64,000 nucleotides of DNA, from contig CAZLNZ010000004.1 in assembly GCA_964561145.1 (NCBI GenBank), positions 27,047-91,046 on the forward strand, given 5' to 3'. A model generated the notes under the pieces. The model was not told the DNA's origin. It did not search any database and saw only the letters and a list, made by a program, of their open reading frames with translations. Every line of letters begins with the position of its first letter. Within the stretch, counting starts at the first letter, position 1. Source of the DNA: an uncultured Christensenellaceae bacterium (GTDB lineage: Bacteria > Bacillota > Clostridia > Christensenellales > CAG-1252). Position numbers and translations under genes: made by a program. Below, piece after piece: positions 3,861 through 46,095 of this stretch.

Positions 3861-4020
3861 ACATATTCTACACCATTATTACCGTATCGAAAACATGTAT
3901 GCCTCCAAGAAAATATATGTATTTTATCTAAAATGTCATACTGAGCGAAAGGTGAAATATTGGAAAATAACTTAAAAAATATTCAATAACTCAAATAAAA
4001 AAGAAATAACCTATATATAA

Positions 4021-4102
4021 TGTCATACTGAGCGGAAGAAATTGGTCTCAATTTCTGTAGTCGAACCCCAACGGGGCGATACGAAGTATCGGTATCTCAT
4101 CC
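4021..4102 (+). repeat. Three-hairpin structured element, copy 1 (candidate ncRNA/REP-like)
   Basis: TGTCATACTGAGCG, then hairpin AGAAATTG/CAATTTCT, GTAGTCGAA, hairpin CCCC/GGGG, hairpin CGATAC/GTATCG, GGTATCTCATCC. Confidence 0.6.
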
Positions 4103-4365
4103 TTGTTATTACAATATATGTTAGGCTAGGGGTTTGTTTCTTGCAAGATATTGTTATTATTATAATATGATACATCGTAGGGCGGGGGCTTGACTCTCGC
4201 CGCATCTGTTTATGAAAATCATATTTGTGAGATGCAATTTGTCATTTAGAGCAAGAAATACCAAGAACTTGTCTAAAATGTCATACTGAGCGAAAGGTGA
4301 AATATTGGAAAATAATTTAAAAAATATTCAATAACTCAAATAAAAAAGAAATAACCTATATATAA

Positions 4366-4447
4366 TGTCATACTGAGCGGAAGAAATTGGTCTCAATTTC
4401 TGTAGTCGAACCCCAACGGGGCGATACGAAGTATCGGTATCTCATCC
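4366..4447 (+). repeat. Three-hairpin structured element, copy 2 (identical to copy 1, inside the second tandem unit)
   Basis: Same sequence as 4021-4102. Confidence 0.6.
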
Positions 4448-4622
4448 TTGTTATTACAATATATGTTAGGCTAGGGGTTTGTTTCTTGCAAGATATTGTT
4501 ATTATTATAATATGATACATCGTGAGCGGATGCTTGACTCCCGCCGCATCTGTTTATGAAAATCATTTTTGTGAGATATAATTTGTCATTTAGAGTAAGA
4601 AATACCAAGAACTTGCCTAAAA

Positions 4623-33900: not shown

Positions 33901-34271
33901 ACGAAACTGCAAAGAGTATAGATATAGACGAGATTTTAGGCTGTTTAAAGTCACCTGTAATTGCAGAAGCCAGGGTATCCGATTGTTATAGAGAAAGACG
34001 ATTTGTATTAAGGAAGAGTGCAAGAGAACTTGGCATATCAGATACGGATGAGAACGTTTTAGTTCAAGGAACAGTTGATATGCTTATAGTTGGAGAGCGT
34101 ATTATAGTAGTTGATTTTAAGAGAAGCAAGTTATCGGATGCAAAGCTAAAAGAACGCTATTCAACGCAATTAAAGCTATACGGCGAGGCGGTAAAGTCAA
34201 CCTTTGGTAGGTATCCCGATAAGCTTTTACTGTACGTGCTTGGAAGAAATAGTATAGTCGAAATCGACTAA
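30903..34271 (+). CDS. addA: Helicase-nuclease AddAB, subunit A (UvrD/Rep-type helicase plus RecB nuclease)
   Basis: ASAGSGKT, VDEYQD, TLHGSKGLEYP, C-terminal GTVDMLI...VVDFK. TAATG overlap with addB. Confidence 0.93.
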   Translation: MGWTIEQQKAIDFKGNLIVSASAGSGKTSTMIARAIRLITKERVPVERIMLLAYNNAAALELREKLRQGLLNYGKENPFEGMYIREQLDNLYLADISTIHGFCFKLIREFFEEAGASPSIAVQSQEEESENIAKAAKNTLAIVEKDAEIRTLMNKYSLKNDDSFINSIITLYNYTTTQADREGFLRACEEAYLVPLEESRTVKYFIGYYRDMAMKYTDYFKEILLFVQEYEKDSIPFVSNIYEIVERCSRVSNLKEYCTLVLNPPSFGRAKKGEMDPLLYNKIIAARDSFKSHYLTKLKSFPSYAELEEGHRLAADHVRLLLKAVRVFEREYDKLKAEQNRIDFQDMERYAVKLLSDEGLKAEIRDRHDYVFVDEYQDANAVQESIITSITKEGRLFLVGDVKQSIYRFRLAEPKIFLKTYEEWRKAGNALSFNNNFRSDCGILSFVNNLFENIMIPSFGGINYKDDGAFIISENKATGNIPAVSILSYPQAALTAMKLAAKDERESRTDNLYIDDNGNTVYDISQNIEVELDEDYNEASIVLDYINSVRGKEVIVKGNRIVVDYKHIAILFQKRGDAKVILSALAAKGIPLNLGSFEGNIGEVQLNVLIDYLSVIDNIYDDYSLITSLHSFIGGFSNNELKSIRLKYLNKMSFAEVCLKYSREQDTELAKKLRSFFNKVEAFRFKASFTELSTFIKEVMEESGYATYVVSLENGINIISALNGYIKGLKGKTYARNLSGYLKHFRENEPPELKALSSVENGIVISTLHGSKGLEYPIVILAELDKTSGGGNMQSILTDRDLGVGFDFFKDEGRQKLATIDKMAIGLKKRLDEKMDKLRLFYVATTRPQSALCIICDVNKESPFSVEECNCMGDYVRLAISKNEELKKVIRYVSPEKIEPEERRRELTITDIDCPEEVLEVLSYKYPYLEATKTARKYTVSSLNNEDLGYTLSPVSVEEERNVLGTAHHAVMQYIDLYADSEEEVKAEIERMCLSGLIDDETAKSIDIDEILGCLKSPVIAEARVSDCYRERRFVLRKSARELGISDTDENVLVQGTVDMLIVGERIIVVDFKRSKLSDAKLKERYSTQLKLYGEAVKSTFGRYPDKLLLYVLGRNSIVEID

Positions 34272-34524
34272 AGAAGTATTGTTCTAAGGTGATATTTGCT
34301 TTTAGCGAAGCAATATTTGCGAACTTTGAGCTATATTTTTGCGTGGCGGTGTATGTGTTATCGGTGAGTTGAGTCTTACTACCGCAAGTGTTCGCATTTT
34401 CATTTTAAGGCAGGCGACAAGACTTACGCTGCATCCTTAAAAAGGTTGCAAGTAACGTAAAAGGAAATGTTTTATGTAGACTTTTTATTAATTCTTGTTA
34501 TTTTCTAGAAAGCATACATCTAAA

Positions 34525-34606
34525 AGTCATACTGAGCGGAAGAAATTGGTACCAATTTCTGTAGTCGAACCCTGAAAGGGTGATGTGCAACATCGGTATC
34601 TCGTCA
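34525..34606 (+). repeat. Three-hairpin structured element, copy 4
   Basis: AGTCATACTGAGCG box. Hairpins AGAAATTGG/CCAATTTCT, CCCT/AGGG and GATGT/ACATC. 3' box GGTATCTCGTC. Confidence 0.6.
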
Positions 34607-34864
34607 TTTTTTATACCTACGGATACAAATATTCTTGAACTTTTGCATTTATCGATGCTGAATCCATTTTCTGTGGTGTTTCGATCCCAAAAAAACTAAT
34701 TATTTTTAATGTAAAGGTTGATATATTCACTATTTTATTCTATAATTAAAATATCGTAAATGATCAATAATGCCATCGTCTGTCTTCTCGGGTGAAAATC
34801 ATTATGGCATTACTTCGTGCTTCATATACAATAGAGAACCTTATATGGGAAAAGGAGTCAATTG

Positions 34865-37800
34865 GTGAACGTGAAAAAGGCATTGGGTTTTGTAGGGTTG
34901 ATAATTATACTGCTGGCTATTCTGTCGGTTTCTTTGATTTTTGTTGGTTGTAATAGTGATGTTTTAGTTACGGTTCATACAGATCAGTTCGGCGATATTG
35001 CGTGGAATGCATCAAAAGAATCTTTTGATTCCTTTATTATTACCCTAGGAAAAGTTGAGAATTTCAGACCGATATATTATTTTGATTCAGATTATTCAGT
35101 TAGAGCTGATGTTAATGTATTAACTGCAGATAAGCTTAAAAAGGCAGATTGCAAAGATGTTTATATAAAGTGGGTTATTTGTGAACATACAAGTGCACAG
35201 AATATGAGCAACGGTGTTGATGCAACCTGCTCTACAGAGGGAAAAGCCCCCGATTACCTATGTCCTACATGCGGACATGTTGAGATAGGGGAAAGTATAC
35301 CCTGTATTCCGCATACTTATATTGAATATAAATACCGTGCTGCAAGCTGTACCGAAGATGGTCAGATGGCTCATAAAGAATGTACGATTTGCCATTATCT
35401 TACCGATGGGCAAAAGCAATTAAACGTTGATGATATAATAATTGAAAAGCTCCCCCACATAGAAAGTGACTGGATTGTAGATTATGATTCAACTTGTACA
35501 AAAATAGGAAATAAGCACAAAGAATGTACAATTTGTAATTTTATTATTAAAAATGAAGTTATTCTCGCTAAGGATCATGATTTAATACTTCATTCTGCTA
35601 AAGGAGCCACATGCACTGAGATTGGTTGGAATGAATATGACAATTGTTCCAGATGCAGTTATACGACTTATGTTGAAATATCTGCAAAAGGACACAATAC
35701 CCTTCGTCACGAAGGAAAACATGCTACATGCGATTCTGACGGCTATGAGTCATACGATTATTGTGTAAATCCGGGGTGTGTATATTCTACAAAGGTCGTA
35801 ATTCCCGCACTTGGGCATGATACTATTAATCACGAGGCACAAGAAGCTACTTGTTTGAGTATTGGCTGGAATAAGTATGAAACTTGCTCACGGTGTAGCT
35901 ACACAACATATCAAGAGATAGCAGCCTTCGGGCACGAGATGATTCACCATGATGCTAAGAAGGAAACTTGCACGGAGATTGGCTGGGAAGAATATGATGG
36001 TTGTACTAGATGTGATTATAAGATAGGCTACAATGAAATACAGCCTCATCATACTATTGTTGAAGTTTCTGCAAGGTTCCCTACTTGTATCGATCCGGGA
36101 TATAACGTATATGAGAAATGCACTGAGTGTGATTATTCTACGCTAGTTATTATTGCCGCTCTCGGTCACGATGATGGTGTGTGGGTAACCGATATCCAAC
36201 CTACTTGTACCGATGTCGGAAGTGAAGATAGAAAGTGTACTCGTTGTCAGCATATCTTAGAAACAAGAGAAGTTAATGCCTTAGGTCATGACGTGATATA
36301 CCACAAAGCACAGGATGCGACTTGTCTTGAGATCGGCTGGTATGAATACGATACATGTTCAAGGTGTAATTATACGACCTATGTTGTAATTCCCGCATTA
36401 GAACATGATCTCGTATACGTTGATAAAAAGGAGCCTAAATGCTACGAGCCTGGGCATAATGCCTTTGAGTATTGCAACCGTTGTAGTTATACAACGTATG
36501 AGGAATTAACTATAGATCACTCTATAATCCACCACGAGGGCAAAAGTGCAACTTGTTTAGATAAAGGTTGGTATGATTATGATACTTGCTCAAGAGTGGA
36601 TTGTAAGTATTCGACCTATGTCGAAATCCCTGCGATTGGTCACGATAACGGAAAGTGGATAGTAGACTATGATCCCACTTGCACGGAAAAGGGCTCTAAA
36701 CATAAAATATGCACAAGGTGTGAGTCTCCTCTGGAACACGCATTTATTGATTCTCTAGGTCACGAGATTGTACACCATGCAGCACAAAATGCCACTTGCA
36801 TAGACATTGGTTGGTACGCATATGATACCTGCTCAAGGTGTGATTATAGTACATACGAGGAAATAGGTGCCCTAGGTCATGATGATGGAGTTTGGGCAAC
36901 TGAAATTCAACCTACTTGTATAGAAAATGGAAGAGAAGCTCGAAAGTGTGTCCGCTGTCAGTATGTCTTAGAAACAAGAGAAGTTAATGCCTTAGGTCAT
37001 GATACGATACACCACACAGCTCAAGATGCTACTTGTTTAGAAGTTGGTTGGTACGCATATGATACTTGCTCAAGGTGTGATTATAGTACATACGAGGAAA
37101 TAAGTGCCATGGGGCACAATGATGGAGTGTGGGTAACCAAAATTCAACCTACGTGTACGCGAAATGGAAGCGAGGTTAGAAAGTGTACCCGCTGTCAATA
37201 TATAATAGAAACTAGAAAAATAGACGCCTTAGGTCACGACACTATCCACCATGCAGCACAAGATGCTACTTGCCTTGAGGTTGGTTGGTATGAATACGAT
37301 ACCTGTTCAAGATGTAATTATAGTACATACGAGGAAATAGATGCCTTGGGTCATAGCTATGTAGATTGCATATGCACTAGATGTTCCTTGGAAAACCATA
37401 TTAACAGTGGTGAATTATGCCGTCATGATAAATATATCTATTTCGGCACATATCCTCAGAGCGAAGTTAAAGACTCCTCTTTAATTGCGGTTTTAACATC
37501 ACAAGCAGGAGTTCTCCCTACAGAAAATAATTCAGCTAATTGGACAAGCTACGGTTATTACATAGAGGGGAAAATAAGCAACTATATGTGGTATATTGAT
37601 ATATCCTATAGTAGTGAAACCTATAGAGGTGTGTATTTTACATCTTATCGTCCGGAAAAGACAAACTATTCAAGTTCCTCTGATTATAGCTATCAGGATG
37701 ACAATGGGTATTTAGTATCCACAGTCTATTGGTTTAGGTATGAGCCTATCAAGTGGAGAGTCTTGAGCGAGTCAAACGGAGAAGCCTTGGTTCTTTCTGA

Positions 37801-40800
37801 AATGATCATTGATTCTCGTGACTATTATGATAATGATAAAGATCGTACTATAGACGGAGCAACAGTGTATGCAAATAACTATGCTTACAGTAATATACGA
37901 GCATTTTTGAATAATACCTTCTACAACGTAGCTTTTTCATCACTTCAAAAGGAATTGATATTGTTAACTGACATTGATAATAGTGCTAGAAGTTCATATG
38001 AAATTGAACCTGGCTTTGAAAATGATAGTGAATGTGTCAATAGCTATGCATGTAACAACACTTCAGACCATGTATTCTTTTTAAGTACATTTGAGGTATC
38101 AAATCCAGATTACGGATTTGGTGGTGAAGAAGATATCGATTTGATTAGAGCTGCTACTGATTATGCACAGTGTCAAGGTGCTCATATAACGGAAAATGAC
38201 GAAGAGTACTTTTCCGGTTGGTGGTGGCTACGTTCACCTGCAAATTACAAGTATGACGGTGCAAGGGGTGTTAATTATTGTGGTAGTCGGTCTTACTGCT
38301 ACTATCTATATAGTGCTGATGTGGGTGTTGTTCCGGCTTTGCGAATTCATCTTACAGACTGTATTGAGAATGGGCATGAACCTAATGAGAAATGTATTTG
38401 TACAAAGTGCGGAGATACGGTACATGACCTTATACGCCACGAAGCAAAAGGTGCAACTTGCCTTGACGTTGGTTGGTATGAGTACGATACCTGTTCAAGA
38501 TGTAATTATAGTACATATCAAGAAATTGCGGCACTAGGACATGATTATGTAGACTGCATATGTGCTAGGTGTTCATTGGAAACTCATATTAACGATGGGA
38601 AATTCTGCCGCCATGATGATTATATTTACTTTGGTTTATATCCACAAAGTGAAGTAACTGATGAGAACTTAACAAGCGTATTAACCGCTCAAGCAGGTGC
38701 CTTACCCACAGAAAATAACCCAGCTAATTGGACAAGTTATGGTTATTACATAGAGAACGAGATTACCGATTTTATGTGGTACATTGACTTAACCTATGGT
38801 TGTGAAACCTACAGAGGTGTATATTTTACATCATACCGTCCTTCTTATCATTCAGTTTCAAGTATTGAGACTAACAGTTATCAGGATGAAAACGGTTATA
38901 GTTTATCAACAGTGTATTGGTTTAAATATGAACCTGTTAAGTGGAGAATATTAAATGAGAATAACGGAGTTGCGTTAATTCTTTGTGAATTAATAATTGA
39001 CAGCCAAGCTTTTTATGATAATTTGAGTGGTAGAACTATAGACGGTAGTACGGTATACGCAAACAACTATGCATATAGTAGTATTCGCACCTTCTTAAAC
39101 GATACTTTCTACAACACATCATTTACAGCACTTCAGAAAGAATTGATATTATTGACAGAGGTGGATAATACTGCAAGGGGCACTAACCTTGATACTAATA
39201 GTTCCTATTGGAATAGTGGCAAAAATACGTATGCTTGTGGAAATACAAACGATTATTTATTCCTGTTAAGCAGTAGAGAAATGACGACCAAGGCAAATGG
39301 ATTTATTGCAACTACCGGAGTTTCCACTACCAGACAAAAGAAAATGACAGACTACGCCCTATCACAAGGATTAGCTGTAAGTACAGAGAGCTCTTATATT
39401 GGTTGTGCCAATTGGTTGATCCGTTCTCCCGATTTTGATAGTGGTGCGAAGATTCGTTTTGTTCAATATAGCGGACACGATTACTATAACGATCTTGCAG
39501 CAACGGACTATACTGCGTGTGGTATAGTCCCTGCATTAAGAATAAAACTATCTGATTCCTTCGGTATTGAGCATACTACAAATTCTAACTGTGTTTGTGC
39601 CGCGTGCGGAACTGTATTGCATTGCTTGATTTATCATTCTGCCAAGGCAGCCACCTGTACCGAGATTGGTTGGAACGAGTATATGACTTGTACACGTTGT
39701 AGCTATACAACTTATAAGGAAATTCCCGCGTTAGACCATGATTATATTATCCATGCGGCTGTTTCTCCAACCTGCACCGAAATTGGTTGGAAAGAGTTTG
39801 CTACCTGTTCTCGATGTAATTATTCAACATATCAAGAGCTATCCCCTTTAGGCGGAAAGCATTTATACGAGCTAGGTATTTGTAGTAAGTGCGGTGTAAA
39901 CGCTTACACTCGAGATGGTGATTATATCTACTTCGGAACATATCCTCAAAGCGAAGTGACTGATACCACACTTACAACATTTCTTACTTCATCAGCAGGA
40001 AGTTTGCCAACAGCTAGCAATTCCGCTAATTGGACAAGTTATAAGTATTACATTTCCACAAACGTTAAGGATTACATGTGGTATATTGACTTGAACCACA
40101 ATGGTGACCAATACAGGGGAGTGTACTTTACCTCTTACCGTCCATATTGGACAATGGGTACCAGTTCTTTAGCTAATAGCTATCAGGATGACAATGGCTA
40201 CAGTATATCCACAGTGTATTGGTTTAAGTACGAGCCTATTAAATGGCGTATTCTTTCCGAGAGTGATGGAATAGCACTAATGCTTTGCGAAATGATAATA
40301 GATAGTCAAGAGTATTATCATACTACCAGCAATCGTACAATCGATGGTTCTACAATATATGCTAACAACTATGCGTATAGTAATATTCGCACCTTCTTGA
40401 ATGAAAATTTTTATAATACCGCCTTTAGTTCATTACAAAAGGAATTAATATTATTTACGAAAATCGATAATAGTGAAAGAAGTACAAATCCGGATAATAA
40501 CCCGTCAGAATGGAATGGTGGTACAAATAAGTATGCGTGTTCTAACACTAATGATCATATATTCCTACTGAGCGAGCAAGAGGTTACAACTGAGGCATAT
40601 GGCTTTAGTGCGGATTATAGTGCGGCTGATATCCAAAGACAAAAGAAAACCACGGCTTATGCTAGGTGCCAAGGGGCACTTACGAATGCATCGAGCGGTT
40701 ATGAACAAAATGGCTGGTGGTGGCTACGTTTCCCATATTACGATAGCAACTATAACGCACGTCGTACTAACTATTACGGTTACGCAGGTATTGGCAGTAA

Positions 40801-42154
40801 TGTTCATGACAATAGTAACGGAATAGTTCCCGCTTTACGTATTAGGCTAAGTGACTGCATTGATAATGGACACACGTTAGATTCCAATTGTGTTTGTACG
40901 AAGTGTGGTGATACTGTTCATACTCTCACTTATCACTCGGCACAAGCGGTTAGTTGTACCGAAATAGGCTGGAATGAATACGAGACATGCTCTCGTTGTA
41001 ACTATTCAACATACCAAGAAATCCCTGCATTGGATCATGATTGTATCACACATGAAGCCCTAGCTGTTACATGCACCGAAATAGGTTGGAATGAATATCA
41101 AACATGCACCAGGTGCGATTACTCAACCTATCTAGAGATTCCGGCATTAGGTGGCGAGCATTTGTATGAACAAGGTACTTGTAGTAAATGCGGTGTGAAA
41201 GTATATACTCGAGATGGTGATTATATCTATTTTGGCACATATCCTCAAAGCGAAGTGATCGACACTGAGTTTGTCTCAATTCTTACCTCACAATCGGGAA
41301 GTTTACCTACAGCTGGTAATTCCGCTAATTGGACAAGCTATAAGTATTACATTTCCTCTAGTGTTAAGGATTTTATGTGGTATATCGATTTAAAATATGA
41401 AGGAGAGTATTATAGGGGTGTGTACTTCACATCTTATCGTCCGACTCAGACCAGTAAATCGAGTTCTACGGGTAATAGTTTTCAAGATGATAACGGATAT
41501 AAGATATCCACTATCTATTGGTTTAAGCATGAGCCGATTCAATGGCGTATATTAAGTGAGAGCAATGGCGAGGCATTAATCCTTTGTGAAATGGTGATTG
41601 ACAGTCAAGAGTATTATATTAGTACTAGCAATCGAACAATAAATGGCTCAACTGTTTATTCTAATAACTATGCTCATAGTAGTATTCGTGCCTTCTTGAA
41701 TGATACTTTCTATAACACAGCATTTAGTTCATTGCAAAAAGAGTTAATACTATTAACGGAAGTTGATAATAGCGTGAGAAGTACGAATCCTGACAGTAAT
41801 GCAACACAATGGAATAGTGGCACAAATAAAAATGCTTGTTCAAATACCAATGATTATGTATTTCTGTTAAGCGAGCAAGAGGTAACAACGCCAGCATATG
41901 GTTTCAGTGCAGATCACAGCAATGCAGATAGTGTAAGGCAGAAAATACCCACCAATTATGCTAAAATACAAGGTGTATCAGTAAGTACTGCAAGTGGAAC
42001 ACAAGGTAATGTATATTGGTGGTTGCGTTCTCCATACTATGCAAATAACACTGATATTCTTGGGATTAGTATTGATGGTAATACTTATGGTGATTATTAT
42101 GTTAACTACATCAACCTTGGTACTGTTCCCGCTTTGAGAATTAAACTTGAATAG
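34865..42154 (+). CDS. Giant (~2430 aa) surface lipoprotein with about two dozen ~40-aa Cys/His repeats and four DUF6273-like modules
   Basis: Signal peptide plus lipobox (LIFVGC). Repeat GH-x4-H-x5-TC-x3-G-x5-C-x-RC-x-Y. Four modules read YIYFGTYPQSEV...YWFKYEPIKWRIL...WWLRSP...GVVPALRI. RBS AAGGAG with GTG at 34865 or TTG at 34862. Confidence 0.85.
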   Translation: MNVKKALGFVGLIIILLAILSVSLIFVGCNSDVLVTVHTDQFGDIAWNASKESFDSFIITLGKVENFRPIYYFDSDYSVRADVNVLTADKLKKADCKDVYIKWVICEHTSAQNMSNGVDATCSTEGKAPDYLCPTCGHVEIGESIPCIPHTYIEYKYRAASCTEDGQMAHKECTICHYLTDGQKQLNVDDIIIEKLPHIESDWIVDYDSTCTKIGNKHKECTICNFIIKNEVILAKDHDLILHSAKGATCTEIGWNEYDNCSRCSYTTYVEISAKGHNTLRHEGKHATCDSDGYESYDYCVNPGCVYSTKVVIPALGHDTINHEAQEATCLSIGWNKYETCSRCSYTTYQEIAAFGHEMIHHDAKKETCTEIGWEEYDGCTRCDYKIGYNEIQPHHTIVEVSARFPTCIDPGYNVYEKCTECDYSTLVIIAALGHDDGVWVTDIQPTCTDVGSEDRKCTRCQHILETREVNALGHDVIYHKAQDATCLEIGWYEYDTCSRCNYTTYVVIPALEHDLVYVDKKEPKCYEPGHNAFEYCNRCSYTTYEELTIDHSIIHHEGKSATCLDKGWYDYDTCSRVDCKYSTYVEIPAIGHDNGKWIVDYDPTCTEKGSKHKICTRCESPLEHAFIDSLGHEIVHHAAQNATCIDIGWYAYDTCSRCDYSTYEEIGALGHDDGVWATEIQPTCIENGREARKCVRCQYVLETREVNALGHDTIHHTAQDATCLEVGWYAYDTCSRCDYSTYEEISAMGHNDGVWVTKIQPTCTRNGSEVRKCTRCQYIIETRKIDALGHDTIHHAAQDATCLEVGWYEYDTCSRCNYSTYEEIDALGHSYVDCICTRCSLENHINSGELCRHDKYIYFGTYPQSEVKDSSLIAVLTSQAGVLPTENNSANWTSYGYYIEGKISNYMWYIDISYSSETYRGVYFTSYRPEKTNYSSSSDYSYQDDNGYLVSTVYWFRYEPIKWRVLSESNGEALVLSEMIIDSRDYYDNDKDRTIDGATVYANNYAYSNIRAFLNNTFYNVAFSSLQKELILLTDIDNSARSSYEIEPGFENDSECVNSYACNNTSDHVFFLSTFEVSNPDYGFGGEEDIDLIRAATDYAQCQGAHITENDEEYFSGWWWLRSPANYKYDGARGVNYCGSRSYCYYLYSADVGVVPALRIHLTDCIENGHEPNEKCICTKCGDTVHDLIRHEAKGATCLDVGWYEYDTCSRCNYSTYQEIAALGHDYVDCICARCSLETHINDGKFCRHDDYIYFGLYPQSEVTDENLTSVLTAQAGALPTENNPANWTSYGYYIENEITDFMWYIDLTYGCETYRGVYFTSYRPSYHSVSSIETNSYQDENGYSLSTVYWFKYEPVKWRILNENNGVALILCELIIDSQAFYDNLSGRTIDGSTVYANNYAYSSIRTFLNDTFYNTSFTALQKELILLTEVDNTARGTNLDTNSSYWNSGKNTYACGNTNDYLFLLSSREMTTKANGFIATTGVSTTRQKKMTDYALSQGLAVSTESSYIGCANWLIRSPDFDSGAKIRFVQYSGHDYYNDLAATDYTACGIVPALRIKLSDSFGIEHTTNSNCVCAACGTVLHCLIYHSAKAATCTEIGWNEYMTCTRCSYTTYKEIPALDHDYIIHAAVSPTCTEIGWKEFATCSRCNYSTYQELSPLGGKHLYELGICSKCGVNAYTRDGDYIYFGTYPQSEVTDTTLTTFLTSSAGSLPTASNSANWTSYKYYISTNVKDYMWYIDLNHNGDQYRGVYFTSYRPYWTMGTSSLANSYQDDNGYSISTVYWFKYEPIKWRILSESDGIALMLCEMIIDSQEYYHTTSNRTIDGSTIYANNYAYSNIRTFLNENFYNTAFSSLQKELILFTKIDNSERSTNPDNNPSEWNGGTNKYACSNTNDHIFLLSEQEVTTEAYGFSADYSAADIQRQKKTTAYARCQGALTNASSGYEQNGWWWLRFPYYDSNYNARRTNYYGYAGIGSNVHDNSNGIVPALRIRLSDCIDNGHTLDSNCVCTKCGDTVHTLTYHSAQAVSCTEIGWNEYETCSRCNYSTYQEIPALDHDCITHEALAVTCTEIGWNEYQTCTRCDYSTYLEIPALGGEHLYEQGTCSKCGVKVYTRDGDYIYFGTYPQSEVIDTEFVSILTSQSGSLPTAGNSANWTSYKYYISSSVKDFMWYIDLKYEGEYYRGVYFTSYRPTQTSKSSSTGNSFQDDNGYKISTIYWFKHEPIQWRILSESNGEALILCEMVIDSQEYYISTSNRTINGSTVYSNNYAHSSIRAFLNDTFYNTAFSSLQKELILLTEVDNSVRSTNPDSNATQWNSGTNKNACSNTNDYVFLLSEQEVTTPAYGFSADHSNADSVRQKIPTNYAKIQGVSVSTASGTQGNVYWWLRSPYYANNTDILGISIDGNTYGDYYVNYINLGTVPALRIKLE
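37240..42151 (+). repeat. Four tandem ~1.2-1.3 kb intragenic DNA modules inside the giant gene
   Basis: The YIYFG(T/L)YPQSEV-coding sequence recurs at ~37430, 38617, 39916 and 41216. The PALRI-coding sequence recurs at ~38340, 39535, 40835 and 42135. Confidence 0.85.
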
Positions 42155-42327
42155 TATTTAGCAATCCATAGACGATGAAATAGATAAAAGGAAAAGAGGT
42201 TTAGTTTGCGTTGTAGTCAATGGGTTGAATAATGACTGAATATGTAGTAATAGATCGTAACTCAGTTACTTATAGTAAAAGCTCATAGAACTACAAGCCA
42301 TTGAAGTCTTTCAGTTATTCTTTAATT

Positions 42328-42366
42328 AAAAAAATAACTTGGATATTGCACCAAGTTATTTTTTAT
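42328..42366. terminator. Bidirectional intrinsic terminator
   Basis: AAAATAACTTGG-atattgca-CCAAGTTATTTTTT between convergent genes. Confidence 0.85.
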
Positions 42367-42378
42367 AAGATATTTCTT

Positions 42379-43884
42379 TTATTCCTTTATGGGTGTGAAG
42401 ATGGGAAGTAGCAAGAAGGCCATTCCGAGAAGTGCGTATTTCAAATCATAGGTAACCTTCAATATTACGGGAGGTGTTATTTTCTCTAGGATTTCCGATG
42501 CTTCGGCAAGTGCTGCAAGTATTGCTACAATGATTCCAATAACAGCAGCTTTTTTTGAATTTCTGTCGGATTTATTCATAAGAATAAGAGTGAATGTACC
42601 TGCAAGAAATACCAATCCTATCGGGATAAATACGAGGAGGTTGGCATACTTATATAGTTCGTTAAAAAATGCTACTTTTTGTTCATATTGTAAACTATTG
42701 CCGTAATAAACATAAGCGGCATAAGCTACTCCGAAAAGTGAAGCAAGTAGGTATCCAATTCCTGCAACTTTTTGTCCGCCTTGTAGGTTTATCAAAAGAG
42801 CAATTGAGATAATAATCCCTAGCCCCCACACTACAATTGAGGTGCTATAATATATATCGAAAACAATAAGATCTACGTTTATTGGCATTGACGGTAATCG
42901 GATATATGTCCATCTAAATATCCCGAATAACAATGCAATCACGCCCGCTATAATACCTATTAGCCTTGCGATCTTACCCTTGCGAGAGTTGCCTTTATCT
43001 TTTTTCTTTTTCTTTTCGGCACTTAATTCTTCAAGTGTGGTGACTTTTATACCGTCTTTCTTAGGCTCTATTTCCCTTGGTTCGTCATTCGATTTAGTAT
43101 CATCATCGGCGAGTTTGATAACAACGCTTGGGGAGGGACTTTCGAACTTTTTCTTTTTACCATCACCTAAATGTTCATATGAATCTTTACTTGGGGATTC
43201 TACAGAAGAAGGGTTGGTCTCTTCCGTTTTTTTCTCTTTAGAATCATCTTCAATAACATCACCGATAGAAAACGCTTCCTCGTTATTCTTTTGAGAATCC
43301 TCATCTTCTAATAGATCGTCGATGTCAATCGGGGATTCCTCTTTATGAGCGACTATTTCAGTGTCTAGCACGTCGTCGATATTTGGAATGTTATCTTCCG
43401 ACTTTTTATGAGGGATATCTCTTGTTTCCTCTTCGGGAGTGTCTCGTTTATCACACTTCGTTTCATCTGTATTAGGCGTGGTCGAGGCGGTTTCCTCAAG
43501 ACTTGAATTTATCTTCGGAATATCATCCTTTGCAATAGAGACAAGTTTTTCCGGTTCTGACGCGTGTCTTTCTTCAGTAACATTTACGGTGTGATCGATG
43601 TTCTCATTATCACTTAGGGCAAGAGAACCATCTAAAGCATCGGCTTCTTTTTTTTCTTCAACTTTGCCTGACCGAGTATCTTCCTTTCTTATTGATGAAA
43701 ACCTATATTTTTTTCCGCAAGAAGGACAGAACCAAGTATCGTCTTCGCACTTTTTTAGTGGAGTGGAACAGCTCTTACATTTCTTTATTGAAGAAATTTT
43801 GAATTTTTTATTACAGTGAGGGCAATAATAAAAATCCTCAAGATCAGACTTGATTAACTCAGTGTTACAAATTCTACAATTCAT
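42379..43884 (-). CDS. Membrane protein with two N-terminal zinc ribbons, a long acidic disordered linker and a polytopic C-terminal domain
   Basis: CRICN..CPHCN and CKSC..CPSCG. About 230 aa of D/E/K/S-rich low complexity. About 6 hydrophobic segments. I prefer the ATG at 43884 (RBS GAGGA). Confidence 0.7.
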   Translation of the reverse strand: MNCRICNTELIKSDLEDFYYCPHCNKKFKISSIKKCKSCSTPLKKCEDDTWFCPSCGKKYRFSSIRKEDTRSGKVEEKKEADALDGSLALSDNENIDHTVNVTEERHASEPEKLVSIAKDDIPKINSSLEETASTTPNTDETKCDKRDTPEEETRDIPHKKSEDNIPNIDDVLDTEIVAHKEESPIDIDDLLEDEDSQKNNEEAFSIGDVIEDDSKEKKTEETNPSSVESPSKDSYEHLGDGKKKKFESPSPSVVIKLADDDTKSNDEPREIEPKKDGIKVTTLEELSAEKKKKKDKGNSRKGKIARLIGIIAGVIALLFGIFRWTYIRLPSMPINVDLIVFDIYYSTSIVVWGLGIIISIALLINLQGGQKVAGIGYLLASLFGVAYAAYVYYGNSLQYEQKVAFFNELYKYANLLVFIPIGLVFLAGTFTLILMNKSDRNSKKAAVIGIIVAILAALAEASEILEKITPPVILKVTYDLKYALLGMAFLLLPIFTPIKE

Positions 43885-44376
43885 ATTATCCTCGATGCTC
43901 CCTTTAGCTTGAGAATTAAGCAATATCGGTGCAATGTACACGGATACCCTGAACACTCATAGTTATGATATAGTATTATAACATATAGAGACTAACATTT
44001 ATTAATAAGAATAGAATAATTTTTATCCCCAACCTTCATTTATTGATTCATGCGAGGGTTTAATTGTTTTGAGTCAATGAACTGGCATTTAATAACAAAA
44101 TAACATACGAAGAATCCTTAGAACAAACCGGTATATGTAAACCTAAAATTGAATCACAAACAGTAATGTCTAATCATTGTAGGAAGGGCGGCTCGACTTC
44201 CGCCGCACTCTTATATATTCTACGCCAAGTACCTTAGCTATAACCTTTCGGGCTTGTTTCTACGCCTCAATCCTGCTCCTTTTACACAAGTAATGCAATG
44301 ACTTAAGAAAACATATATAGGACAAAGAAAAATGGTGCTAAAAGATTGTAAAATTATAACAAAATAATATCCGGAT

Positions 44377-44447
44377 TTCGTACTGAACGAAGGCAACGAC
44401 GTAGTCATAATCCGAAGGAGCGATACTACGGTATCGGTATTTCATCC
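44377..44447 (+). repeat. Three-hairpin structured element, copy 5 (most diverged)
   Basis: TTCGTACTGAACG box, GTAGTC, hairpins TCC/GGA and CGATAC/GTATCG, 3' box GGTATTTCATCC. The first hairpin is not evident. Confidence 0.45.
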
Positions 44448-44610
44448 CTTTTATTATACATCGTAGGCTGTGATGTAGGCTTACCCCCGCATTAATATGA
44501 AAGACAAGCTGGTGTCTAAAACGTATAGAGGAAATGTGTTTCCTATGCTTTAGTTTCGTATTGACAAGATGTTATAATAAAAAAGTATTTTATCTTGCGA
44601 GGTACTTACG

Positions 44611-46095
44611 ATGAAACAAGGTTTCGATAATGATATATATCTCAATAACCAGTATAATCACATTGTAGAAAGAGTTTCTATGTTTGACAAGCTTTACCTT
44701 GAATTTGGAGGCAAGCTTTTTGATGATTATCATGCAGCGAGGGTTTTGCCCGGGTTTAATCCTAATGTCAAAATGCTTCTTTTAGAGCGCTTCAAGGAGA
44801 TGGCTGAGATTATCATTTGCGTTAAGGCATCGGATATTGAGAAGAAAAAGATTAGAGCGGATATCGGAATAACTTATGATGAAGAGGTAATTAGACTTGA
44901 AGAGATTTTTAGAAAGAGAGGACTTCCTGTTAATAATATAGTAATTACGCAATACAAGGGTGAACCCGGTGCATTGGCTTTTAAGGAGCGCTTGGAGGGG
45001 ATTGGAAAAAAAGTTACAATTCATAGTCCGATTAACGGTTATCCCTATAATGCGGACTTAATTGTATCCGACAAGGGATATGGAATGAATGAGTATATGC
45101 CAACGGAAAAGCCATTGGTTATTGTAACTGCTCCCGGTCCGGGCAGTGGTAAAATGGCAACTTGCTTGAATCAGCTCTACCACGAGTATAAAAGAGGGCA
45201 TGTAGCAGGTTATGCTAAATTTGAAACCTTCCCTGTTTGGAATCTCCCCATAGATCATCCCGTAAACATTGCATATGAGGCGGCTACATTGGATTTGGAC
45301 GATCAAAATATGATAGATCCTTACCACCTCAAGGCGTATGGAATTTCCACCGTAAACTATAATAGGGATATTGATATCTTCCATATTGTTCAAGCTATCC
45401 TTGAAAAGATAACAGGGAAAAATGATATTTACCGTTCTCCTACCGATATGGGCGTTAATATGGTAGCTTCTGCAATATACGATGACGATGCGGTAAGATA
45501 TGCTGCAAAGATGGAAATAATCCGTCGATATTATACTGCACTTTATGAAGAAAAACAACGCAAGGTCAGTGAGGCTGTTGTGCAAAAGGCAGAAGCGCTT
45601 ATGCATAAGGTAGGAGTTAATGTTAATGATAGAGACGTTGTGGTGGCAAGCCATGAAAAACAACGCAAAAAGGGATGTCCTGCGGTAGCAATGAGGCTTC
45701 CCGACGGTACAATAATAACCGGGCGTGATAATCGAGCAATGAACGCTTCCGCTTCATGCGTGTTTAATGCGATAAAATATTTGGCAGGAATAGATGATAA
45801 AATCAAGCTTTTGGCTTTGGAAATGATTGAACCAATCCTAAAGCTTAAAAGGGAGGTTTTCAAATACAAGAGAAGGTTCTTGACTTTGGAGGAGGCTTTG
45901 ATTGTTTTGGCTTATAGTTCATCTTCGGGTGATGAAATATTGAATAGAGCGATGGCATGCTTGAAAAAACTTTCGGGAAGTGATGCTCACTCAACCGTTA
46001 TGCTTGCAGAGCATGAGAGAAGAAGTTTTAGGCAGCTTGGTATAAGTATAACTTGTGGTATAGTAACCCCGGATTTTAATAAAGTTTCCCAATAA
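44611..46095 (+). CDS. UPF0371/DUF1846 family protein
   Basis: N-terminal signature LYLEFGGKLFDDYHAARVLPGF and a length of ~494 aa. Confidence 0.75.
   Translation: MKQGFDNDIYLNNQYNHIVERVSMFDKLYLEFGGKLFDDYHAARVLPGFNPNVKMLLLERFKEMAEIIICVKASDIEKKKIRADIGITYDEEVIRLEEIFRKRGLPVNNIVITQYKGEPGALAFKERLEGIGKKVTIHSPINGYPYNADLIVSDKGYGMNEYMPTEKPLVIVTAPGPGSGKMATCLNQLYHEYKRGHVAGYAKFETFPVWNLPIDHPVNIAYEAATLDLDDQNMIDPYHLKAYGISTVNYNRDIDIFHIVQAILEKITGKNDIYRSPTDMGVNMVASAIYDDDAVRYAAKMEIIRRYYTALYEEKQRKVSEAVVQKAEALMHKVGVNVNDRDVVVASHEKQRKKGCPAVAMRLPDGTIITGRDNRAMNASASCVFNAIKYLAGIDDKIKLLALEMIEPILKLKREVFKYKRRFLTLEEALIVLAYSSSSGDEILNRAMACLKKLSGSDAHSTVMLAEHERRSFRQLGISITCGIVTPDFNKVSQ

Follow-up and report, generated by a model that had tools for sequence, protein, structure and literature searches.

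A giant predicted lipoprotein of an uncultured Christensenellaceae bacterium with tandem His/Cys units and four DUF6273 modules: a candidate multivalent surface binder

A 64,000-nt stretch of DNA from an uncultured Christensenellaceae bacterium (GenBank assembly GCA_964561145.1, contig CAZLNZ010000004.1, positions 27,047 to 91,046; hereafter the window) contains a gene for a giant protein composed of a lipoprotein signal peptide, a long array of small His/Cys-rich repeats (units) and four DUF6273 domains (modules). Based on our observations, we suggest that this is probably a multivalent adhesin or binding protein, i.e. a lipid-anchored, metal-stapled rod bearing four lectin-like heads. The sole published protein with both building blocks is the IgA protease of Thomasclavelia ramosa (IgAse, also ThomasA; UniProt Q9AES2; PDB 9QA6, 9QDH), and the comparison with this enzyme, together with that with DUF6273 proteins of phages, carries much of the argument below.

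The His/Cys unit and its precedent in IgA protease

Units were sought by a C-x9-10-C-x2-4-C anchor, which gave 25 sites, and then by a self-scan with a profile built from the units, which delimited 23 full units, each at E <= 1e-12. Eighteen of them lie in tandem (aa 106-829) with a period of 38-49 residues, mostly 39-40, in agreement with the roughly 18 consecutive repeats counted in the original prediction, which had been made from the DNA sequence without database searches. The remaining five are placed between modules 1 and 2 (one unit), 2 and 3 (two) and 3 and 4 (two). Exactly five columns are invariant in all 23 units, namely His3, Cys15, Gly19, Cys26 and Cys29, and the candidate ligand set is one His and three Cys (1His3Cys) in every unit; on this composition the ‘dozens of Zn sites’ envisaged earlier are plausible. 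Two flavours of unit, A (GW...CSRC.YSTY) and B (DDGVW...CTRCQ..ETR), do exist as had been described, but their strict alternation is confined to units 13-18 and to the pair at aa 433-512. The CxCxxC and CxxC ‘knuckles’, the former also noticed earlier, are real, and because their weak, partial match to the unit profile is confined to columns 15-30, they look like truncated units capping each module, about eight in the whole protein. At the DNA level, identity between the copies amounts to 60-80%, and no exact internal repeat exceeds 37 bp; the array therefore appears to be ancient and kept at the protein level, and the same figures rule out an assembly artefact or a recombination hotspot.

The repeat is not described by any Pfam or NCBIfam model. 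Scans of the whole protein and of excised pieces at E <= 10 gave sub-threshold noise only, with zinc-ribbon and zinc-finger models of Pfam below their gathering thresholds (zf-C2H2_ZNF142_18, 14.2 bits, cut-off 27; DnaJ_CXXCXGXG, 10.7 bits, cut-off 32.7; zn-ribbon_14, 9.4 bits, cut-off 34.9), and precomputed Pfam annotation is near-universally ‘-’ among repeat-rich homologues. Comparison of the unit profile with PDB sequences produced one clear match, 9qa6_A, ‘IgA protease’ (E = 3e-13, in the three stretches 854-881, 939-977 and 1103-1137); RPA12 and ribosomal zinc ribbons appeared only at E = 0.03-3. A literature search for an earlier name of the repeat led to IgAse papers only. In these, ZBD1 (aa 879-1008; three subdomains; ~110 Å long) and ZBD2 of IgAse are termed ‘zinc-binding domains’ (PMC12237041) or, in another study, ‘beta-sheet domains’ without similar structures (PMC12402451). 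Each subdomain is described, from AlphaFold models only, as a three-stranded antiparallel sheet with putative tetrahedral 2His2Cys or 3Cys1His sites at the junctions, and the ZBD was presented in 2025 as a possible new metal-binding fold still to be confirmed by experiment (PMC12237041). As the deposited 9QA6 coordinates end at N876, the unit has no experimental structure. The repeat that the original prediction called unrecognised does lack a Pfam or NCBIfam model, but it matches ZBD1/ZBD2 of IgAse, a sole precedent that is itself predicted and uncharacterised. The profile match, the three strands per unit (see below) and the invariant His and three Cys together point to an IgAse-type ZBD repeat with predicted zinc binding.

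Modelling of the repeat, proposed earlier as a check, was done on units 14-18. The AlphaFold2 (AF2) model, built on 79 homologues, has a mean pLDDT of 96.3 and a pTM of 0.61, and is all-beta with three strands per unit and a strand pattern identical within each flavour. His3 falls just before strand 1, Cys15 in the loop between strands 1 and 2, Cys26 where strand 2 ends, and Cys29 in the turn from strand 2 to strand 3; the modelled positions therefore bring all four to that end of the sheet which touches the unit before it, and such a cluster is consistent with the junction sites described for IgAse. A Foldseek comparison of the five-unit model with the PDB gave no significant match (best E = 0.013, TM <= 0.2, rmsd > 25 Å).

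The 41-column unit profile was run with HMMER exhaustively against 1.84 billion cluster representatives. The number of proteins recovered was 26,048 at E <= 1e-3, falling to 12,055 at E <= 1e-10 and to 2,680 at E <= 1e-30, and some of them carry as many as 66 copies. Across 2,943 units from 289 retrieved proteins, His3 is conserved in 100%, Cys15 in 97.8%, Gly19 in 99.7%, Cys26 in about 100% and Cys29 in 99.4%, while the other columns vary; these figures are partly circular, as the collecting profile favours the ligand columns. Exactly three Cys are found in 96% of these units. A His directly after CxxC occurs in 11% of the units without Cys15 and in 3% of the others, a small hint of a ligand swap that would mirror the 2His2Cys sites of IgAse. 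The partner domains of the repeat (cohesin, dockerin, SLH, Flg_new, LRR_5, FIVAR, DUF1542, transglutaminase-like and DUF1566) are extracellular. Only five of the top 150 module-blind matches to the unit profile carry a DUF6273 module, which makes the unit a stalk element of general use. Each of the two building blocks is common in gut-type Clostridia.

The unit motif TC.E.GW....C also gave short local matches to sushi modules of complement factor H and CFHR proteins (E = 6e-4 to 0.05). The resemblance is probably convergent, since it spans ~15 residues and the cysteine chemistry differs. Membership in the sushi/CCP family was considered and rejected: it needs ~60 aa, four Cys in two disulfides and a conserved Trp, and the units have ~40 aa with three Cys and one His.

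Four DUF6273 modules on a lectin-like scaffold

The ~300-aa domain assigned to DUF6273 in the original prediction indeed belongs to this family: a Pfam scan of the giant protein against PF19789 gave E = 3.6e-73 and 245.5 bits (cut-off 23.5) in four stretches, with 73.4 bits for module 1 alone. The modules (together within window positions 37433-42148) have 307-310 aa each, and this conserved unit of ~308 aa is about twice as long as the 172-position PF19789 model, which covers only its C-terminal half; Pfam therefore under-describes the domain. In the AF2 model (pLDDT 89.4, pTM 0.88) the ~308 residues fold as one globular domain, and 957 homologues cover about 90% of the module at around 50% identity.

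In a Foldseek search of the PDB with this model, 9qa6 was the sole match at E <= 0.001 (E = 5.9e-7, probability 1.00, 260 columns, 17% identity), which points to a C-type-lectin-like fold as in 9QA6. Searches of PDB chains by sequence (phmmer and profile) found no match for the module, IgAse included, so the link to 9qa6 is one of fold and shared Pfam family. Among viral proteins the best matches were phage proteins of the DUF6273 family, together with one tail-collar fibre protein (E = 1.5e-7 to 5e-4), followed in the same library by weak matches to DUF1566 (E = 0.26-0.66). In phages, the C-terminus of DUF6273 proteins forms the variable region of diversity-generating retroelements (DGRs), for which receptor binding has been proposed (PMC10743442, PMC11792537, bioRxiv 10.1101/2024.10.15.618418). 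The earlier picture of DUF6273 as a domain without known function needs correction in this light: its C-type-lectin-like fold has been solved by cryo-EM in 9QA6, and in phages it provides the scaffold for DGR variable regions and for receptor-binding proteins.

The four modules share a mean pairwise identity of 62-78% over the first ~180 alignment columns and of 27-39% over the last ~60. The latter part holds the loops between the conserved motifs WWLRSP and GxVPALRI, 28-30 aa long, in which Tyr makes up 13-25% and Asn as much as 21% of the residues, as is typical of binding sites. As judged from the alignment, the modules diverge most in this Tyr/Asn-rich loop, which is hypervariable in phages.

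DUF6273 was also observed in a Clostridia protein of 1552 aa from a metagenome-assembled genome (MAG), named ‘TIR domain-containing protein’ by NCBI, where it is combined with TPR and TIR domains. Putative receptors in signalling or defence therefore bear such heads too, in keeping with a sensing role of the domain.

The gene, its surroundings and its relatives

The protein is encoded by a single unbroken open reading frame (34862/34865..42154, plus strand), and the GTG start at 34865 yields 2,429 aa, in agreement with the length given by the public gene call. Its features are listed in Table 1. The N-terminus, MNVKKALGFVGLIIILLAILSVSLIFVG-C (ILSVSLIFVG-C), satisfies the PROSITE PS51257-type rule {DERK}(6)-[LIVMFWSTAG](2)-[LIVMFYSTAGCQ]-[AGS]-C with the Cys at position 15-35, here Cys29, and Lys4 and Lys5 form a basic n-region within the first seven residues. 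The lipoprotein signal peptide proposed in the original prediction is borne out by this rule, and a lipobox is also present in 9 of 15 multi-module relatives. The segment that follows it, aa 30-105, has no Pfam match even at E <= 10.

Table 1. Sequence features of the giant gene and its flanks (positions in the window)
Feature	Position	Strand	Basis and remarks
Putative sigma-70-like promoter, TTGATA-17-TATAAT	34718..34746	+	11/12 matches, best site of the region; consensus match only
Ribosome-binding site, AAGGAG	34852..34857	+	7 nt ahead of GTG 34865; read directly from the sequence
Predicted lipoprotein signal peptide (aa 1-28) and lipobox Cys29 (IFVG-C)	34865..34951	+	PROSITE-type rule
N-terminal region of ~76 aa (aa 30-105), lipobox to first unit	34952..35179	+	No Pfam match
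Stalk, 18 tandem ~40-aa His-Cys-Cys-Cys units (aa 106-829)	35180..37351	+	Each unit E <= 1e-12
Apparent truncated unit (H-x4-CxCxxC...C-x-H) before module 1	37352..37432	+	Weak partial match, columns 25-30; sequence reading
DUF6273 module 1, C-type-lectin-like (aa 857-1163)	37433..38353	+	Pfam, AF2, Foldseek; variable loop 38240-38323
Linker 1: half-unit (C-x10-CxCxxC), one full unit, half-unit	38354..38620	+	Profile self-scan
DUF6273 module 2 (aa 1253-1562)	38621..39550	+	Pfam, alignment; variable loop 39431-39520
Linker 2: half-unit, two full units, CxxC half-unit	39551..39922	+	Profile self-scan
DUF6273 module 3 (aa 1687-1995)	39923..40849	+	Pfam, alignment; variable loop 40736-40819
Linker 3: half-unit, two full units, CxxC half-unit	40850..41221	+	Profile self-scan
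DUF6273 module 4 (aa 2120-2428), last residue and stop codon	41222..42154	+	Pfam, alignment; variable loop 42035-42118
Inverted repeat between A and T runs, between convergent genes	42329..42364	.	Self inverted match and sequence reading

The inverted repeat downstream of the gene is likely a bidirectional terminator; a simple terminator scan of the region missed it. Housekeeping genes surround the giant gene. Upstream lie those for a P-type ATPase, a HAD hydrolase, AddB and AddA, and downstream a convergent gene for a zinc-ribbon membrane protein and those for DUF1846 and glutamate dehydrogenase (GDH). G+C content is even throughout the window, and neither the neighbours nor the G+C content within it gave any sign of a prophage or island around the giant gene. 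The protein of the convergent gene (42379-43956, minus strand) has a pair of zinc ribbons at its N-terminus (matched by Pfam Zn_ribbon below threshold), a long, acidic linker of low complexity and a polytopic membrane domain; the shared terminator region is this gene's sole evident link with the giant gene. Upstream of the latter lies an intergenic element of ~89 nt (34523-34611), which recurs at 4019-4107 and 4364-4452 with 82% identity, and of which a weaker, partial copy of 56 nt (77%) is found downstream of the convergent gene (44401-44456). It is a dispersed intergenic repeat, and an Rfam scan of positions 34000-45000 detected no family.

In species-representative genomes, relatives of the giant protein that are 43-54% identical occur in MAGs of uncultured Christensenellaceae, Clostridia and Eubacteriales. 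Modules and units are combined in 49 retrieved proteins, and the multi-module relatives carry 2-7 DUF6273 modules; none of the latter exceeds 10 units, against 23 in the giant protein. Two multi-module relatives from human-gut metagenomes adjoin the sporulation genes YabP, YqfD and SpoIIE. Two further relatives with identical N-terminal sequences come from a MAG labelled ‘uncultured Staphylococcaceae bacterium’ (CAYLLO01 contigs); this taxonomic assignment seems questionable, and the two contigs may represent a single repeat-rich gene assembled in alternative ways.

A proposed metal-stapled binding rod and its alternatives

We propose that the giant protein is exported by the Sec pathway from the cell of a monoderm Clostridia bacterium, where a lipid on Cys29 would anchor it in the cytoplasmic membrane, facing outwards. 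The 18 tandem three-stranded beta units after the anchor would each be clamped at their membrane-proximal end by one tetrahedral metal site, most likely occupied by zinc, the four proposed ligands being the invariant His before strand 1, the Cys in the strand 1-2 loop, the Cys at the end of strand 2 and the Cys in the strand 2-3 knuckle. Together, the units may form a rather stiff rod of roughly 65 nm, a length scaled from the ~110 Å of three IgAse subdomains, which would be long enough to cross the wall and any surface layer. Four paralogous DUF6273 heads, with one or two further beads between one head and the next and truncated beads as caps, would stand at the far end, each presenting a different Tyr/Asn/Gly/Asp-rich loop at the place where phages hypermutate their receptor-binding DUF6273 proteins. 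Such a molecule could act as a multispecific binder, i.e. an adhesin or a sensor, whose ligands could be glycans or proteins from the host, from the diet, or from other microbes or phages. Of the ‘major surface structure’ originally predicted, a surface binding role stands as the best reading of the sequences and models, whereas the protein is one of many of its kind and not unique.

A bolder version of this proposal, which we put forward tentatively and would not yet call probable, is that the unit constitutes a novel fold of extracellular proteins, a three-stranded bead stapled by zinc and taking the place of disulfides in anaerobes. With more than 12,000 sequence clusters, it would also count as one of the most frequent stalk elements in gut and rumen Clostridia. 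The giant protein would then be a ~65 nm rod with more than 20 zinc ions and four heads of different specificity, a hard-wired germline counterpart of the loop diversity of phages.

Several points weigh against the proposed binding rod. It is built throughout on sequences and models: the tetrahedral geometry of the ligands is inferred for the giant protein, the ZBD precedent in IgAse is itself predicted, and the conservation of the ligand columns is affected by the circularity mentioned above. IgAse is able to carry out catalysis without its DUF6273 domain or ZBDs, and no ligand has been found for either (PMC12402451, PMC12237041). The giant protein is a singleton in a 5.8-billion-cluster collection (on a 136.6-kb contig), where its closest relative is 49% identical and has 1,708 aa, and a search of sequencing runs with the giant gene and the neighbouring gdh returned no run.

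IgAse resembles the giant protein in several respects. Its N-terminal DUF6273 domain has a C-type-lectin-like core, its C-terminal ZBD1/ZBD2 are made of the same ~35-40-aa His/Cys three-stranded units, and it is surface-anchored in a gut Firmicute. On the other hand, IgAse is an enzyme with an M64 metzincin core, and the giant protein has no catalytic domain. One DUF6273 domain and five ZBD subdomains in IgAse contrast with four heads, 23 full and about eight truncated units here; IgAse is sortase-anchored at its C-terminus, whereas the giant protein has a predicted N-terminal lipid anchor; and the units of IgAse are mostly 2His2Cys, unlike the 1His3Cys units described above.

The absence of a demonstrated ligand for the accessory domains of IgAse, for which stability, pivoting or localisation have been suggested (PMC12402451, PMC12237041), also leaves room for a different role, in which the giant protein would be a structural or steric part of the envelope (a spacer, a fence or a decoy, e.g. 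a phage-receptor mimic), or its heads would dock partner enzymes. The position of the DUF6273 domain next to the catalytic domain of IgAse offers a model for such docking, and the repeat is often found in cohesin/dockerin scaffold proteins. However, a Pfam scan found no catalytic, cohesin or dockerin domain in the giant protein, and the phage homologues of the heads are receptor-binding proteins. The four heads combine conserved scaffolds with individually diversified surface loops, which favours recognition over a filler function, and we therefore consider the structural role rather unlikely.

A shade less likely still, in our opinion, is that the units are held together by disulfides or packing instead of metal, with His and Cys serving in folding or redox reactions and the sushi likeness marking a disulfide-bonded bead. 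Extracellular Cys-rich repeats are usually disulfide-bonded, and the monodispersity of IgAse required reducing agents (PMC12237041). Yet in the same enzyme no disulfides were seen in the experimental parts or predicted (PMC12237041), and the prevailing three Cys are an odd number, so full pairing within a unit is impossible; the 100% conserved His argues in the same direction. The sushi matches cover ~15 residues of a domain that needs four Cys in about 60 aa, the more frequent His after CxxC in units without Cys15 is a swap that would make sense only for metal binding, and the hosts are presumably strict anaerobes in a reducing habitat.

The phage DUF6273 proteins targeted by DGRs (tentaclins, Mtd-like targets of gut phages and targets of Faecalibacterium prophages) belong to the same Pfam family and share the fold of the heads, and their C-terminal variable, presumably ligand-contacting region is where the four paralogues diverge. 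They are proteins of the virion with one head each, which a reverse transcriptase and a template repeat encoded nearby rewrite; in contrast, the giant protein is a chromosomal lipoprotein with four heads, and the 64-kb window contains no DGR parts. That its heads are nevertheless DGR targets, one or more of their loops being rewritten by adenine-specific mutagenesis with the help of a template repeat and a reverse transcriptase at another site in the genome, would suit a domain that is a recurrent DGR target and loops that are the most divergent part of the paralogues and, as is typical of DGR variable regions, rich in Asn, Tyr, Ser, Gly and Asp, but it is very improbable, since the four loops are about 55% DNA-identical with indels and can have no common template, the gene's neighbours are housekeeping genes, and the two multi-module relatives in chromosomal sporulation-gene contexts have no RVT_1 within 10 kb. 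A DGR inside the window is rejected, as blastn with the four module 3' ends found no template-like partner there and a six-frame scan found no pair of the DGR-type reverse-transcriptase motifs [ILVM]G..[TS]SQ and YxDD.

Other stalk-and-head proteins are more distant parallels. Legionella Lcl (PDB 8Q4E) has a collagen-like stalk and a C-terminal lectin-like domain, according to the passage of PMC12237041 that cites it. A trimeric collagen triple helix forms the stalk, the head is of the DUF1566/Lcl type and the host is a Gram-negative pathogen; Foldseek with the module model did not recover 8Q4E. Among Gram-positive bacteria, the G5-E repeats of SasG/Aap and the Rib domains are rod-like tandem arrays of small beta modules that project a head beyond the wall, and Aap/SasG function is zinc-dependent, zinc mediating dimerisation between molecules in Aap. 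Neither shows a sequence or fold relationship to the unit (the five-unit Foldseek comparison with the PDB was not significant), and the intermolecular zinc of Aap differs from the intramolecular zinc staple proposed here.

As a single locus, the giant gene is one more member of a large class. If the proposed binding rod is correct, a very abundant surface building block of gut Clostridia, so far without a Pfam or NCBIfam model or a solved structure, would be a metal-dependent rod. This would bear on how extracellular proteins of strict anaerobes are stabilised without disulfides, on the zinc demand of the cell surface (more than 20 ions per molecule in this case) and on the annotation of thousands of giant ‘hypothetical’ proteins. 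The four DUF6273 heads, with a shared scaffold and a differing loop that phages hypermutate, would then constitute a convenient system for studies of the binding targets of this domain, and the giant protein would provide an enzyme-free setting in which the two unexplained accessory domain types of IgA protease may be understood.

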